A stretch of 64,000 nt of DNA, from positions 1 through 64,000 of the forward strand of contig CAWFQL010000012.1 in the NCBI GenBank assembly GCA_963817915.1, read 5' to 3'. Source of the DNA: an uncultured candidate division Zixibacteria bacterium. GTDB lineage: Bacteria > Zixibacteria > MSB-5A5 > UBA10806. This document shows positions 39,001 to 45,000 of the stretch, in pieces (position 1 is the stretch's first letter; every line of letters begins with the position of its first letter). A program made the position numbers.

Positions 39001-42000
39001 AACAGAATCCAGTCTGTCGGTTTTCTTGCGAATCTCTTCCGGCTGTTGTGACATCTCCACGATGCCGCCGGCGTTATCTGTTATAGGCCCGAATGTATCC
39101 ATTGCCAATATATAGGCCGCGGTCGCGAGCATTCCCATGGTGGCTACCGCTGTGCCGAAAAGTCCCGGCGTTGGGAAGGCCGCTCGATTGTCCGAGAAAA
39201 TATGATGCCAGAAGCGCCGCGCCCATGACCAATGTCGGATAGGCGGTGCATTCGAAACCGACCGCTATGCCTGATATAATATTGGTCGCCGGGCCAGTCT
39301 GCGAAGCCTCCGCAATCGATTTGACTGGACGGTATTTATATTCGGTGTAGTATTGTGTTATATAAACAAATGCCACCGATGTCAGCACTCCCATGATGCC
39401 GCATAAGAAGAAATGCCACCATGCCTGCGGAGCTTGCGGGCTATTCAAAAGCCAATAGGTCGCGCCGCCGAAGGCTATCATCGCCAGGATAACCGCTACA
39501 TAATAGCCGCGGTTCAAGGCTGTCATCGGATCCATTTTCTCCTGCTTGTCCAATTTAACAAACATGATACCAACGATCGAGGCTATGATTCCAAATGCGC
39601 GCGCTACCAATGGGAACATGATCACCCCGATTATGCCCCACGAGAATTCCATGCTCGCCTTCTGGGCTGTTGCCGCAAGCGACGCGCCCAATATCATTGC
39701 GCCGATATTTTCGGCAGCGGTCGACTCAAATAGATCGGCTCCACGACCGGCGCAATCGCCGACATTATCACCGACTAAATCTGCAATTACAGCAGGGTTG
39801 CGAGGATCGTCTTCAGGGATACCAGCTTCGACTTTACCCACGAGATCGGCTCCAACATCAGCGGCCTTGGTATAAATACCGCCGCCAAGCTGGGCAAATA
39901 GCGCTACAAATGACGCGCCGAATCCATAGCCGACAATCAAAAGCGGTATTTTGGTTGGCTCGATTGCGCTTATCCAATGAACAAGAGCATATAAGCCCGA
40001 TACTCCCAGCAAGCTCATCGAAACAACCAATAACCCCGATACCGCGCCGCCGCGAAGGGCGATACGCAAGGCGTCATTCAGGCTCGATAAGGCCGCATGG
40101 GCGGTTCTGATATTGCTTCGTATCGAAATCCACATTCCGACATAGCCCGCGAAGACCGAGCATAACGCCCCGAATACAAATGATATCGTAATCCATGTTG
40201 CCAGTTCCAGCGAGCTGCCGACAGGATCGAAGTCCCGGTGGCTTCGAATAAAACCGTAGCCGATAAACAGCAACGCCGCCAAGACCAACGCCAGCAACAA
40301 AATAGTGCGGTTTTGTCTTCTCAGGAACGCCTCGGCACCGGCTTTGATAGCATTCGAGATTTTTTGCATCGCCTCGCTACCGGTACTGTGCTTGAGTACC
40401 CATCGACTGAGATAATAGGCGAACGCAAGCCCGGCTATACTGATTGCAATGACCAATAAAATCAATTCCTGCATAATTTTAAACTCCTGTCCTTTTTGTC
40501 AAAAGACGATTGATATTATATTTATTTTCCCTATTTTCATTAAATTAAGTTGGCGTGGATGATAATTTCCCTTTGCTCCCCAAATACCTTTGAACCCCCT
40601 GCCATTTGGATAAACATGACTCGACATCATATTTATATTGGCTATGGTTGTCAATAAAAATATCCACCATTGCGAAGCCAAAATATGTCTCTAAAATAGC
40701 CATTTTTTTATTCTTGAACCAGGCTTATCAGTTGCAATAGTTAAATTCAACTTCATCGTGTTTCAAAAGTAAGCATTTTGGACGCCAAAAAGCTCGTTGG
40801 CTGCTTGAGTATTCAATTTTACCGATACTATGGTAAAAGATTGAATTTATGCGACGGGGATAATATGGACCTAAAATGGAATGACGATTTGCTGACTGGA
40901 AATGCGGTAATAGATACTCAACATAAAGAGCTTTTTAATAGAATTGCGCTTTTTCATGAAGCCTGCAAAAAGGGGCAGGGAAGAGCTGAGCTTTTTAAAG
41001 CATATATGTTTTTGGGCAACTATGTGTTGGAGCATTTCGCCGATGAAGAAGCATTTCAGAGACAATATTCCTATCCCGAATATGAAATCCATAAGGCACA
41101 TCACGAGCAATTTCTGAAAACTTTTATCGAACATAAGAAAAAACTTGAGGAAAATGGCGCGACTATCAGTGCTGTCAACGACACTATCATTTTAATGGGC
41201 AAATGGATTGACGATCATATTAATAATATGGATAAGAGATTGGCGAATTTCCTCAAAGAGAAGAAAAAAGAGAATTACCAGAATGTATAAAGGCTGAATT
41301 CAGCAAAGATTAAAAATCGACAACTGTGTTTGATTCATCAGCCTGGTTTTTTCCTCTTTATTCCAAACCAATAAGGCCAGATTTTTCGGTTCAATCTTAT
41401 TCAAATCCAAGTCACCCAGGTGTCGCCATTCTCTTTCGTAGCTCCAATCTACATTTTTTTCGCCCTTATTCTGGAAGAACGGTTTTTCAGATTCGGGAAG
41501 ATCATTGTAATCGTCGGATGTCCCGTAGATTACCGGCTTGATTCCAAGTTGGGTGGCTGCGGTTTTTCGAATCGCAACTCCATAAGGCTCGAAATTGTAA
41601 TTGACTCTATTATGCCGCCATCTAATCTGCCTTGTCATCTCATCGGGTTTGACTTCACTGAATCCTACCACAGATATGCCATCGCGGATTTTTTCCGATG
41701 AGCCATAAATCATCTTATTCTTGATTATATTTAGAAGTGTTTCTAACCCATTCCCCGGATATTGCATTCCAGATTCCAAAAGCCTTTTATAGAAGGCAGA
41801 TGATTTTTCATTCGGCCACGGGCCATGACAGGTTTTGGTCCAATGAACTAGGTAATCCCACGATCCAAAGGCGTCAGGGTTATTGTTAAATTTATATTTC
41901 GGAGGCTGATAAATAGATCTCGAATATTCGATTTTCCATTTAGACTCGATTTTCGTGGATATGCCGCAATCATTCAGGAGGCCTTCTAATCTGCCTCTGG

Positions 42001-45000
42001 GCCTTATAGATATCGGCGTAATTAAATTTGCCAATTCGAATGCCGCTTTGTCTCTCTTGGCCCAATTGGATTTCGGCGATCTGGAATGTTCGTCCGGCTT
42101 TATAAAAACCATGGCGGTTTTGGCAGGATCGAGATTGAATTCGAGAATTGCTTGATTATATACATCCAGCCCATTTTTGTCATCGAAGATCGGGCTTATG
42201 ATAATCTGTTTGCCCTTGTTGGTCGCGGTTAGATAGACAGCCAATTCCCAGGTTATCATATCAAGGCTTGTGATAATAGTATGACCTTCATTGACCAATT
42301 CCGAAATGGCATGCGACGTCGCCTTAATCCAGGTATCATCGCCGCAGGGAGTCTTTGATTGGCTGCTATTGAGCACGACAGCCAAATTGCCGTCCAAGAG
42401 GCTCTTGTTGCCTTGAATTATCATCGATGAATCAAATATAGTAATTTAGGGTGGAGGAAGCAATTAGCTTCTACCGAAACCGATATATCGGAAGCCCGCC
42501 TTGCGAGCCTGTTCAGGCAAATAGATATTGCGCGTATCCAGTAACGCGTCGCCCTTCATCGCCTTTTTCAGCCGGACTAAATCTAATTCGCGGAATTCAT
42601 TCCATTCGGTCATTAAAATCGCGATATCGGCATCATTGCATGCGGAATAAGGATTATCCGCGTATGCTATTTGAGGAAAGATTTTTTTGAAATTATCCGA
42701 GGCCAACGGGTCATATGCTGTAATATTAGCCTTTTGGGCGAGAAGCATCTTGGCAATATATTGTGACGGTGAATTACGAATATCATCTGTATTGCTTTTG
42801 AAGGCCAGCCCCAGCAGGCCGATCTTTTTTCCGTTAAGGGTTCCAAGCAATTTGCGGGCCTTTTCGACCACCAATTCGCGTTGACGGATATTGATCTTTT
42901 TTATTGCTTTGGGAATCTGCATATCCACGCCAGCCTTTTCGCCGATTGAATTCAAGGCCGCGATATCCTTGGGCAGACACGACCCACCGAATCCGGGCGA
43001 CGGGTGCAGGAATTTCGGGCCGATTCTGCCATCCATACCGACAGCCTTGGCGACGGTGACAACATCGGCGCCGAAATAATCGCAAAGCTGTGCCATCTCG
43101 TTGATGAATGATATTTTGGCGGCCAGAAAACAATTGGCAGCGTATTTGATTATTTCGGCCGTATTATTATCCGTAATTATCATCGGGGTTTCGATTAAAT
43201 ATAAGCCTCGATAAACTTCCTTCATAATCTCTTTTGCTTTGTCTGATGAAATCCCGATTACGATTCTATTGGGCAATAGAAAATCATTGACTGCCGAACC
43301 CTCTCGCAGGAATTCAGGATTCGATACTATATCGAAATCTGCATTAGTAACCGACCTGATTTTCTCGCTTATCAGCTTATGAGTCCCCACGGGCACTGTC
43401 GATTTTATCGCAATGACTTTATAATCATTGATATATCGTCCAATCTCGGAGGCGACATCAAGCATATCCGAAAGATCAGGATCGCCGTTATTCCCCTCTG
43501 GAGTGCCAACTGTCAAAAATACTACGAGGCTATTTTCGACAGCCTGCCCCAAATCGCTCGAAAATTTTAGTCTTCCCTTTTCGATATTTCGTTTCATCAG
43601 GTCGGAGAGGCCGATCTCATATATTGGATTGCCGCCGCCATTTAAAAGATTGATCCGATCCTGATCCTTATCGATACAGACCACGTCATTGCCGAAATCA
43701 GCAAGGCCGGCGCCCGCGACCAGTCCGACATACCCGGTCCCTATGACACAGATTTTCACGCTTTGATCTCCTCGATTTCGGGCTCATTTGGGGCTTTCTT
43801 CAAGCCTAATGATTTTATTCCCATAAGCGCCAATATAATCGCTCCGGCGGATATGGGAAGATAAAAGGTGAAGAAACGCCAGATTCCTGTGAGGAGCGGT
43901 ATTATCGAGAATGGCAATATGCTGTTATATACTATTCCAAATGCCGCCTCGGCGCCGCCGATTGCTCCCGGTGTCGGTATCAGAGTCATTGCCGTGAATA
44001 CCACCCATTGCATCAGGAAGAATAGAATCGGGTCTACTGGATAACCAAGGCCGAGCACGAGGGCGCTTATTGCCCCGTAACGGCAACACCAGCCAATGCC
44101 CGCCACTACTATGCAGAGAAAAAATGTTCCTTTGCCGTTGTAAGAGGCAAATTTAATCGCGGTTTTAAAATCGTCCTTATAACGGCTAATATAGCTCTTG
44201 AATCTGGACATAAGTGAAATCGATACAGTTTGCCGATCGATTCCATCGGTTTGCCGCTTCCAGCTTTTTAGTCTGCCTATCAATATAGTCGCTAAGGATA
44301 AAATCAGAATAATAGCCACCACCAATGGCCAATGAGAAATAAGACTTTTTATGGCAGTTGCGACATATGGGTTATTCCATGCGCCGCTAAATATTATCGC
44401 GACGGGAATCGCAATTGCGAAAAAGATACCGTCCTCAATGGTTCCGATTATTGTGACCAAAGTAGCTTCGCCCGGCGAAAATCCGTATTTGATTAACATG
44501 GCCAATTTGATATAGCTCCCGCCAATCGCGGTCGGGGTCAATGCGGCGCCTAAATCCGAACCGATCGCCGTTGATAGCGCCTGATTGGGTCTCAATTCTC
44601 TTTTGAAAATCCTATTCCATAGGAGCATTCGTCCCGAATGAGCGAACCAGGGTACGAATACCATTATAGCCGCCAACAACAGGTATCCGATATTAAATCC
44701 GCCCAAATCTTTGAAAAGCCCGGGTTTGCTCGCTACCAGGATATAGATAATATTTCCAGCGATCGCCAATGGGACAATTATAACCAATGGCTTGATGAAT
44801 CGTTGGACTAAATCACCGTTGGAGATATTGTTTTTCTGATTATGATTTTCATCCATGGCTTGGTATCTAATTTATCTCAATTATATTTTCAAAAGCTCCA
44901 AGAAGACTTTTTCATATTGGCTGGAGATTTTTTCGATTGCAAATTGCCTTTGAGTAAACTCCCTGGCATTTTTCCCCAGAGTCGCCAATGATTCGGGATT

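Follow-up and report, generated by a model that had tools for sequence, protein, structure and literature searches.

The gene under study lies on the minus strand at 41300-42424 of the window, by which we mean the whole 64,000-nucleotide stretch of DNA analysed here, from an uncultured Zixibacteria bacterium. The open reading frame begins with ATG and encodes 374 amino acids, and close relatives of matching length (374-382 residues), alignable from residue 1, confirm that the gene is real. The first-pass annotation had found no family for the product and this held: nothing rose above cut-off in Pfam, PADLOC or NCBIfam, with only sub-threshold matches to PDC-S31 (E 0.0012), DUF2971 (E 0.008) and AbiGi (E 0.04). 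The whole-chain model reached pLDDT 96.4 and pTM 0.92. A search of sequencing runs listed no RNA run for the gene and one DNA run (share 0.05), which has no bearing on expression. The features of the locus are as follows.

41300..42424, minus strand: gene for the predicted 374-aa fusion protein, in which a DprA-derived SLOG domain precedes an AbiGi-clade ADP-ribosyltransferase (ART) domain (open reading frame, equal-length relatives, model)
41915..42424, minus strand: N-domain, residues 1-170, DprA-derived SLOG (Rossmann-like), lacking a SAM domain (fold match, Foldseek, profile)
42362..42370, minus strand: N19-S20-S21, aligned to the DprA G-S/T-R motif (alignments)
42050..42055, minus strand: R124-D125, aligned to the DprA R-N-R motif, putative ligand-pocket residues (alignments)
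41864..41914, minus strand: inter-domain linker, residues 171-187 (secondary structure, alignment)
41303..41863, minus strand: C-domain, residues 188-374, predicted ART fold of the AbiGi clade (fold match, hhalign)
41837..41845, minus strand: H194-W-T196, strand-1 H-x-T motif (alignment)
41423..41446, minus strand: W327-x-x-E330-x-E332-W-R334, with E332 the putative catalytic glutamate (alignment)
42464..43759, minus strand: co-oriented UDP-glucose dehydrogenase gene, 39 bases upstream, a neighbour outside the system (Pfam)
40778..41290, plus strand: convergent hemerythrin gene at a distance of 9 bases, given for context (Pfam PF01814)

The N-domain belongs to the DprA branch of the SLOG superfamily

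Fold comparison by VIA Z-scores, made with the whole-chain model, bore out the proposed joining of a DprA-type SLOG domain to an ART fold. The N-domain matched ShosA (Z 14.0) and SpDprA (Z 12.5, DprA chain range 95-254 only), and Foldseek recovered it at E 1e-5; against the PDB and viral libraries, only this domain was among the Foldseek matches listed. Z-scores ran from 14.0 to 11.7 for the DprA branch, 8.2-9.8 for LOG, MoCo-carrier and YpsA proteins and 6.1 for the ThsA SLOG, so that by this method LOG, YpsA and ThsA are all more distant from the domain than DprA is.

Sequence profiles traced this ancestry through the longer relatives, whose profile matched canonical DprA with probability 94.7 (E 5.7e-8), whereas the short-form profile reached only 3.8 and gave no significance against single DprA or DarT sequences. 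The Desulfomonilia profile was collinear with canonical DprA across 175 columns, and one member passed the PF02481 cut-off. TIGR00732, which covers DprA proper, did not match the window's protein, and the best long form scored 24.1 bits against a cut-off of 191. A profile search of PDB sequences returned 2 matches, neither significant. At the place of the SAM domain, absent from the window's protein, long forms carry an extension of about 110 residues that does not align to SAM, and their linker in Desulfobacterota is, by alignment, far longer.

Ser20 occurs in 129/129 homologues, and the next position is Arg in 101/129 and Ser in the window's protein. As read from alignments, position 21 corresponds to R115, the ssDNA-binding Arg of SpDprA (PMC4066776). 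Arg is found there in 64/76 Zixibacteria, 15/15 Desulfomonilia, 5/5 Syntrophobacteria-type and 17/19 Planctomycete-type sequences, and in 0/14 short forms outside Zixibacteria. R124-D125 is invariant in 145 sequences (Asp125 in 129/129 homologues), and these are, from the alignments, likely ligand-pocket residues. The SpDprA dimer-zone residues I263-D275 and the RecA-triad residue E265 (PMC4066776) fall outside the aligned range 95-254, and the dimer helix of the DprA C-terminus is unmatched.

The C-domain is assigned by sequence profile to the AbiGi clade of ADP-ribosyltransferase folds

The first-pass annotation had called the C-domain closest to DarT, which stands among solved structures (Z 7.2-7.9, rmsd 3.7-4.4 Å, 130-142 aligned). 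Tpt1 (Z 6.8), Scabin (5.6) and CC0527 (5.3) followed on residues 184-374. These Z-scores are middling and rest on the whole-chain model, the domain folded alone from a single sequence having a pLDDT of 36.8; with four ART families in agreement, the model points to a split beta-sheet ART fold. By sequence profile the call for DarT did not stand: hhalign against 14 AbiGi proteins gave probability 98.4 (E 7.5e-15, 154 columns), and against 16 DarT proteins 1.9 (E 0.026), with no Pfam DarT (PF14487) match. The C-domain HMM matched AbiGi at E 5e-7 and a DUF4427 protein at E 4e-8; the fusion protein itself missed the PF10899 cut-off (14.4 bits vs 22.4), and 0/45 distant members matched in Pfam. Judged by these profiles, the ART domain is of the AbiGi clade rather than DarT.

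The conserved His and E-x-E-W-R motif reported earlier were recovered. In the H-x-T motif, His194 is kept in 129/129 homologues and the Thr in 127/129; the corresponding DarT residues H13/T15 bind the NAD ribose, according to a passage of PMC9967889. W327, E332 and R334 are each found in 129/129 and E330 in 128/129, and E332 pairs, in a weak alignment, with the A-E glutamate of the DarT profile. Together with strand-2 S/T256 (126/129), the strand-1 His and strand-5 Glu complete the ART signature positions, intact in all five homologue groups. A basic/aromatic R/K-W-R-x-R patch at positions 268-272 is kept in short forms. Across the 16 closest pairs, dN/dS stayed within 0.05-0.23 in the ART domain and within 0.10-0.42 in the N-domain, and the gene is under purifying selection. 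Use of NAD+ by the protein is likely.

Distribution and inheritance

The fusion gene occurs in 126/151 Zixibacteria genomes, as one match in 121 and as two pieces in 5, in keeping with the single-copy chromosomal state first described. All 10 Zixibacteria families with at least two sequences are monophyletic in the tree (support 0.945-1.0), absences fall mostly by whole families, and none of the 25 genomes lacking the gene hid a divergent full-length copy (0/25). The gene is single-copy, housekeeping-like and vertically inherited along GTDB families. DarT is found in 16/151 of these genomes, patchily.

The proposal of a Zixibacteria signature, with 137 homologues in all and hardly any outside the phylum, was wrong. 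Searching the entire library with HMMER, clustered at 50% identity, gave 1,670 clusters at E<=1e-3, the weaker of which may include single-domain relatives, 1,405 at 1e-10 and 334 at 1e-30. The low earlier count is a tool artefact, because the word-indexed search returned only 43-55 proteins for the fusion; HMMER uses no word index. Full fusions outside Zixibacteria occur in Desulfomonilia (30/61), Latescibacterota, Planctomycetota, Syntrophobacteraceae and others, and the family has three clades and members in several phyla. Database names suggest Desulfomonile tiedjei (a MAG record) and members of Rhodopirellula and Rubripirellula as probable cultured carriers.

We rejected carriage on mobile elements for the collections searched, since searches with single sequences or patterns, whose reach is limited, found no full fusion on phages, plasmids or viral contigs. 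Replacement of canonical DprA was likewise rejected: the window's own genome has two ordinary DprA genes, as had been noted, and canonical DprA is kept in 5/5 Desulfomonilia tested.

Gene neighbourhoods and partner genes

The absence of a shared neighbour, claimed earlier for the whole set, holds between families; within families gene order is stable. The UDP-glucose dehydrogenase gene does not adjoin the fusion gene in six other loci of the same family, and the hemerythrin gene is not common to relatives. The order is fixed in Desulfomonilia, where a longer, more DprA-like form lies between comEC and pilD, with comEC three genes upstream in 9/9 loci of sufficient length and pilD as the next gene downstream in 15/17. 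In Desulfomonilia lacking the fusion gene, comEC and pilD were on separate contigs in 4/4, all four being fragmented drafts. This competence context is missing from five Syntrophobacteria-type loci and from Zixibacteria and Planctomycete-type loci; being confined to one class, it counts as one evolutionary event. ComEC does not covary with the fusion gene in Zixibacteria, being present in 20/20 genomes lacking it and 22/22 carrying it.

The reported lack of a partner gene was supported. No Macro, ARH or NADAR eraser was found in the window's own genome (94% complete), and no DarG or NADAR adjoins the gene in the window. Among Zixibacteria, Macro (18/22 carriers, 18/20 non-carriers) and ARH (4/22 and 0/20) showed no link with the gene. 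No AbiGii-type partner was named by Pfam among the neighbours or shared across lineages, and no ShosT-type PRTase was named among the neighbours scanned. A DarTG-type toxin-antitoxin pair was rejected on the DarT profile probability and the lack of DarG/NADAR.

A proposed function and its alternatives

Two folds of traceable ancestry, conserved catalytic-type residues, vertical inheritance and the absence of a partner gene are the ground on which we interpret the fusion. We propose, at a probability of roughly 40%, that it is a domesticated, non-toxic mono-ADP-ribosyltransferase acting on nucleic acid, targeted or gated on single strands by its DprA-derived domain. An ancestral dprA copy would have fused to an AbiGi-clade ART domain and then been inherited vertically beside ordinary dprA. 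The DprA-derived domain would bind single-stranded DNA or a nucleotide end in the conserved S-R / R-D pocket, which would target or switch on the ART domain; this would bind NAD+ through H194/T196 and use E332 to transfer ADP-ribose to the strand. The mark would be confined to DNA that is briefly single-stranded, for instance as it enters the cell in transformation or while repair exposes it, and an antitoxin would therefore be dispensable.

Among solved structures, the folds closest to the C-domain (DarT, Tpt1, Scabin) are those of enzymes acting on nucleic acid, and a nucleic-acid acceptor has close to an even chance. The R115-equivalent Arg and the comEC/pilD context favour a DNA-linked reading, although the window's protein has Ser21, the ART structural match stays below Z 8 and neither domain carries much positive charge (medians of +1 and +3 net across 76 Zixibacteria). 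A link to DNA uptake is tentative at best, about one chance in four in our judgement, and we consider it somewhat less likely still that the enzyme ADP-ribosylates incoming or transiently single-stranded DNA in natural transformation or recombination, marking it instead of loading RecA; a mark on taken-up DNA would then protect or license that DNA or limit its integration. The failure to find a Macro, ARH or NADAR eraser in the window's genome sits awkwardly with a reversible DNA mark.

The best-surviving alternative, rather unlikely in our view, is a regulatory protein ADP-ribosyltransferase of DraT-like logic, whose SLOG domain would sense a nucleotide or ssDNA and whose ART domain would modify an amino-acid residue of some housekeeping protein, in DNA metabolism or elsewhere. 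E-x-E loops are typical also of arginine-modifying protein ARTs. The nearly invariant E330-x-E332 has the E/Q-x-E form described for ARTs in a section of PMC12945103, strand 2 (S/A-F-S/T) resembles the S-T-S motif of R-S-E enzymes, and both the low net charge and the vertical, partner-free inheritance would suit a domesticated regulator; yet the nearest folds are nucleic-acid ARTs, an ARH/DraG eraser occurs in few carriers and no conserved target gene lies nearby.

Less probable again is a metabolic NAD(P)+ glycohydrolase or two-step NAD turnover, in which the ART domain would cleave NAD+ and the SLOG domain bind or process the ADP-ribose or nucleotide product. ART-fold NAD(P)+ glycohydrolases exist, and genes connected with NAD lie nearby on the same strand in four distinct lineages: in one Planctomycete-type lineage nadA follows the fusion gene immediately (8 loci), in 3 Glassbacteria-type loci the second gene downstream encodes nicotinate phosphoribosyltransferase, and a DarG-like macrodomain and darT-darG adjoin the fusion gene at loci L173 and L031, respectively. 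Four cases among several dozen unrelated contexts may, however, be chance. LOG proteins carry the motif P-G-G-x-G-T-x-x-E; the fusion consensus lacks it, and the N-domain is nearer to DprA than to LOG.

A single-gene, Thoeris-like anti-phage effector, in which the SLOG/DprA domain would sense phage ssDNA or a signal nucleotide and the AbiGi-type ART abort infection, we regard as improbable. The AbiGi-clade domain, the weak PDC-S31 match and the best fold match to ShosA, a DprA-like defence protein binding ssDNA, lean that way, as do stand-alone ART-domain relatives near PemK, PIN and PD-(D/E)XK genes in 3/4 Latescibacterota loci, but the fusion is a single-copy gene with a family-congruent tree and stable order within families, was not found on the mobile elements searched, and has almost exclusively housekeeping neighbours, defence-type ones occurring at three loci only (L026, L031, L171). 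Very improbable is a DprA paralogue without catalytic activity, serving as RecA mediator or ssDNA chaperone and carrying an ART-like appendage that is degenerate. DprA ancestry and the comEC/pilD context would be congenial to it, but the ART domain is conserved better than the N-domain, the counterparts of the dimer zone and E265 lie outside the aligned range, and canonical DprA is kept alongside; a predicted complex with RecA of a same-family genome scored 0.00 in 2 runs and is no evidence either way.

Bacterial ARTs are known mainly from toxins, from effectors and from defence genes of patchy distribution that come with an eraser. What is new here is the single-copy state, the GTDB-family-congruent tree and the purifying selection, with no mobile carriage and no cognate eraser found: a partner-free AbiGi-clade ART with an intact active site, kept vertically in Zixibacteria, Desulfobacterota, Planctomycetota and other phyla. 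These features point to a housekeeping role of ADP-ribosylation that is as yet undescribed, and the Desulfomonilia context offers a testable tie to natural transformation. If the DNA-uptake reading were true, the fusion would be a DNA ADP-ribosyltransferase with a housekeeping role in DNA uptake and no antitoxin, the first of its kind, and the AbiGi clade would gain its first mechanism. An assay of this soluble two-domain protein would inform that clade, because AbiG is still listed without a recognisable domain in part of a 2026 review (PMC13064643).

Comparison with known systems

The literature searched, which was not exhaustive of reviews, held no description of a DprA-SLOG and ART fusion. 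With DprA/SMF (PF02481, TIGR00732) and ShosA, the fusion shares the SLOG Rossmann domain, collinear motifs and, in most homologues, the ssDNA-binding Arg position. Unlike DprA, it has rewritten motifs (SGLAxGID to S-x-G-x-x-T-W-E, RNR to RD, EAxxxSGS to SIRPxG), in its short form lacks both the SAM and the winged-helix domain and shows no match to the dimer helix, and carries an ART domain while coexisting with canonical DprA; unlike ShosTA, it has no ShosT/PRTase partner among the scanned neighbours.

AbiGi (PF10899), DUF2971, the N-terminal part of DUF4427 proteins and PDC-S31 share with the fusion the pattern H-x-T ... C/S-F-x ... Y-G-I ... G-x-x-P-V-x-Y ... E-x-E-W-R. A passage of PMC12522546 counts AbiGi as an ART-like family and notes a resemblance of DUF2971 to both AbiGi and DarT. 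The fusion differs from this group in falling below all family cut-offs, in the extra G-P-W-P-G-E that follows strand 1, in its R-W-R patch, and in being joined to a DprA domain with no AbiGii partner seen; it is vertical, whereas AbiGi is patchy (15/251 Desulfobacterota genomes). DarT (PF14487) of DarTG and DarT-NADAR is the best solved-structure match of the C-domain and shares H-x-T and the final catalytic Glu, but the fusion has E-x-E-W-R where DarT has A-E, shows no significant profile similarity to it, lacks a cognate DarG/NADAR and is far more widespread in Zixibacteria.

A TIR gene neighbours the fusion gene at one locus only (L171). Thoeris ThsA combines a SLOG sensor and an NAD-consuming SIR2 effector in one chain. 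The fusion likewise joins SLOG to a predicted NAD-using domain in a single chain, but its SLOG is of the DprA type and its effector an ART rather than SIR2.

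An unannotated gene family joining two known domain kinds

The 374-aa fusion protein matched no library family above cut-off, and its sub-threshold matches (DUF2971, E 0.008; AbiGi, E 0.04; PDC-S31, E 0.0012) all fell in the C-terminal half. The gene and the window features surrounding it are:

41300-42424, minus strand, fusion gene, 374-aa ORF
UDP-glucose dehydrogenase gene, ending 39 bases upstream of the fusion gene
hemerythrin gene, convergent with the fusion gene
38239-40474, minus strand, H+-pyrophosphatase gene, split by frame changes
44890-46128, minus strand, GT4 glycosyltransferase gene, split by frame changes

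Frame changes also split recA in the same genome (G000:C3:27998-28787, plus strand); RecA and GT4 are intact in same-family genomes, and all three splits are likely assembly errors. The fusion gene itself is in two pieces in genomes G011, G051, G058 and G144 and at locus L038, either as a true split or through a frameshift or misassembly. Elsewhere in the window we observed a run of unannotated, secreted-looking genes (33763-38084, minus strand), where two paralogues sharing a terminal motif enclose a 262-aa gene without a Pfam match, and a deoxyhypusine synthase-like gene (47416-48507, minus strand) upstream of a glycosyltransferase cluster.

A DprA/SLOG-ART fusion was not described in the literature found by title or abstract start, although an earlier passing mention is possible in the SLOG review PMC4678834, the ART review PMC6126934 and supplements, which lie outside that scope. 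Passages of PMC12522546, PMC13064643, PMC11961720, PMC5512222, PMC8120803, PMC12945103, PMC4066776 and PMC9967889, with the abstract and outline of PMC12961424, contain no such fusion, nor do those of PMC7824862, as had been reported for that paper before. No paper linking Zixibacteria with an ADP-ribosyltransferase was found. The family is real, unannotated and multi-phylum, with a new domain architecture built from two parts of known kinds.

Fold and affinity of the ADP-ribosyltransferase domain

Modelling from a 145-sequence alignment gave pLDDT 96.4 and pTM 0.92. Residues 1-170 of the model matched ShosA at Z 14.0 (149 residues aligned, rmsd 3.0 A) and DprA at Z 11.7-12.5, with lower scores for LOG/MoCo-carrier/YpsA (8.2-9.8) and the ThsA SLOG domain (6.1). 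Residues 184-374 matched DarT (four chains, Z 7.2-7.9 at rmsd 3.7-4.4 A), Tpt1 (6.8), Scabin (5.6) and CC0527 (5.3); these values are middling, yet four ART families coincide on the same modelled residues. The model matches therefore bear out the first-pass annotation of a DprA/SMF-type SLOG domain followed by an ART fold.

The further claim that the C-domain is closest to DarT holds among solved structures but not by profile. Against 14 AbiGi proteins (from 18 loci, excluding two long ORFs and the two weakest partial matches) the C-domain profile aligned over 154 columns with probability 98.4 and E 7.5e-15, compared with probability 1.9 and E 0.026 against 16 DarT proteins, and its HMM detected an AbiGi protein at E 5e-7. 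Since profiles and HMM both place the C-domain with AbiGi, DarT is simply its nearest solved structure. The HMM also matched the N-terminal part of a DUF4427 protein (L146:6742-7989, E 4e-8), so DUF4427 proteins may, on this sequence match, carry an ART domain. It further recovered unnamed stand-alone relatives of 177-237 aa, sharing the motif D-F/Y-T-W-E-R-E-W-R:

L089:5373-5903, stand-alone AbiGi-like ART
L090:3713-4423, stand-alone AbiGi-like ART
L091:4147-4740, stand-alone AbiGi-like ART
L092:669-1301, stand-alone AbiGi-like ART
L145:190-792, stand-alone AbiGi-like ART

At the thresholds applied, none of these matches Pfam or PADLOC. Three have PemK, PIN or PD-(D/E)XK genes nearby, and the clade of the whole set neighbours the fused ART domain in the tree; its members are candidate defence or toxin genes.

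Distribution and inheritance

Word-indexed searches returned 43, 50 and 55 fusion homologues, and the earlier count of only 137 reflects such a tool: a HMMER search of 1.84 billion representatives found 1,670 clusters at E<=1e-3 (the best 150 listed, the weaker ones possibly single-domain), 1,405 at 1e-10 and 334 at 1e-30. Nor is the protein a Zixibacteria signature. Beyond 126 of 151 Zixibacteria genomes, the full fusion occurs in 30/61 genomes of the Desulfomonile class, 9/251 of the phylum containing that class (any match in 16), 13/101 of the Latescibacter phylum (any match in 15) and 12/35 of one further small phylum, with Electryoneaceae, Glassbacteria, Syntrophobacteraceae, Desulfobacterales, Rhodopirellula and Rubripirellula among named carriers. 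In the ESM Atlas, unnamed clusters are commonest in Planctomycetota, which serves as a lead only.

As first proposed, the gene is single-copy in most Zixibacteria, with one match in 121 carriers and two pieces in 5. Seven families (22 genomes in all) lack it wholly, and a wider profile found 0/25 full-length copies in Zixibacteria genomes lacking the gene. A FastTree phylogeny of the ART domain (174 sequences, 198 columns) recovered all ten families with at least two members as monophyletic (support 0.945-1.0) and three clades, namely short forms, Desulfobacterota long forms and Planctomycete-type, with AbiGi and the stand-alone relatives outside. Short forms of other phyla nest among those of Zixibacteria with weak branch support; this leaves room for old transfers and counts against a purely vertical story. 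Among the 16 closest pairs, dN/dS ranged from 0.05 to 0.23 in the ART domain and from 0.10 to 0.42 in the N-domain. True DarT occurs in 16 of the same 151 genomes. The fusion gene is inherited like a housekeeping gene, without an antitoxin.

Gene neighbourhood

No partner gene is common to lineages among the loci compared, in agreement with the first-pass annotation; the lack of a shared neighbour does not extend to Zixibacteria families or to Desulfomonilia. Gene order is conserved within Zixibacteria families and different between them (for example S8 peptidase in f3, the ATP synthase operon start in f4, spoIID/anmK in f11). In Desulfomonilia the order is comEC (divergent), rodZ-like, a 113-aa gene, the fusion gene, pilD and pstS, and a hand tally covering 18 of 30 carriers placed comEC in 9/9 loci of sufficient reach, with pilD as the next gene downstream in 15/17. 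Where both were found among five genomes of the class without the fusion gene, comEC and pilD lay on separate contigs (4/4), a single lineage contrast drawn from draft genomes. The protein between the rodZ-like and fusion genes is conserved at 112-122 aa (L094:4588-4926 and 15 other loci), has no Pfam or NCBIfam match, and is possibly a partner or competence protein.

Five Syntrophobacteria-type loci have ychF/obg, bamA/cheW or DUF374 surroundings, and Planctomycete-type surroundings vary. Within Zixibacteria, ComEC, Macro and ARH showed no covariation with the fusion gene. A darT-darG pair lies immediately downstream of it in one Latescibacter genome (L031:7218-8943). At L173:5979-8859 its neighbours on either side, on the same strand, are a Nudix gene whose best match is CoA pyrophosphatase and one encoding a DarG-like macrodomain.

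Candidate activities

In passages of PMC9967889, DarT holds the NAD ribose with H13 and T15 and uses E160 as catalytic residue. The invariant His and E-x-E-W-R motif noted at first persist here: H194, Y300, W327, E332 and R334 are kept in 129/129 homologues from five groups, E279 and E330 in 128 and T196 in 127. The analysis establishes the joining of a DprA-derived domain to an AbiGi-clade ART that keeps its catalytic-type residues; the protein probably uses NAD+, and the N-domain may target or gate the ART domain.

We tentatively favour a nucleic-acid acceptor, transient ssDNA, at a probability of about 40%. DprA ancestry, the nearest folds and the competence gene cluster point to it, as does retention of the position equivalent to R115, the ssDNA-binding Arg of DprA in passages of PMC4066776, as Arg in 101/129 homologues. 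Against it stand the low net charge, a Ser at that position in the window protein itself (and Arg in 0/14 short forms outside Zixibacteria), the confinement of the competence link to one class, and the want of an eraser, no Macro, ARH or NADAR having been found in this 94% complete genome. A protein acceptor is unlikely, though it ranks next; E-x-E motifs are associated with arginine targets. NAD turnover seems less likely again, and the NAD-related neighbours in four lineages (nadA, nicotinate phosphoribosyltransferase, a DarG-like macrodomain, darTG) are a hint only among several dozen contexts. An anti-phage role appears improbable: the full fusion did not turn up in searches of 50,697 phages, 72,556 plasmids and IMG/VR, the sole plasmid match being an AbiGi gene. 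A non-catalytic role we consider very improbable. The interest of the family lies in its housekeeping pattern and competence context.

Comparison with DprA

Over 175 columns, the long Desulfomonilia forms could be aligned to canonical DprA at probability 94.7 (E 5.7e-8). One of them exceeds the Pfam DprA cut-off, and one is named DprA by NCBI; the short-form profile alone fell below significance (probability 3.8). The structural match to SpDprA stops at residue 254, short of the dimer zone I263-D275 and RecA-triad residue E265 described in passages of PMC4066776. The separate ordinary DprA genes noted at first number two, accompanied by a small LOG-like gene; the second DprA is shorter (294 aa, L087:1402-2283, contig C18) than the canonical copy of 362 aa. 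Because canonical DprA is kept here and in 5/5 Desulfomonilia tested, the fusion protein is a DprA paralogue with a function of its own. Among its homologues S20 and D125 are invariant and, compared with DprA itself, the N-domain has the DprA motifs rewritten with their register kept.
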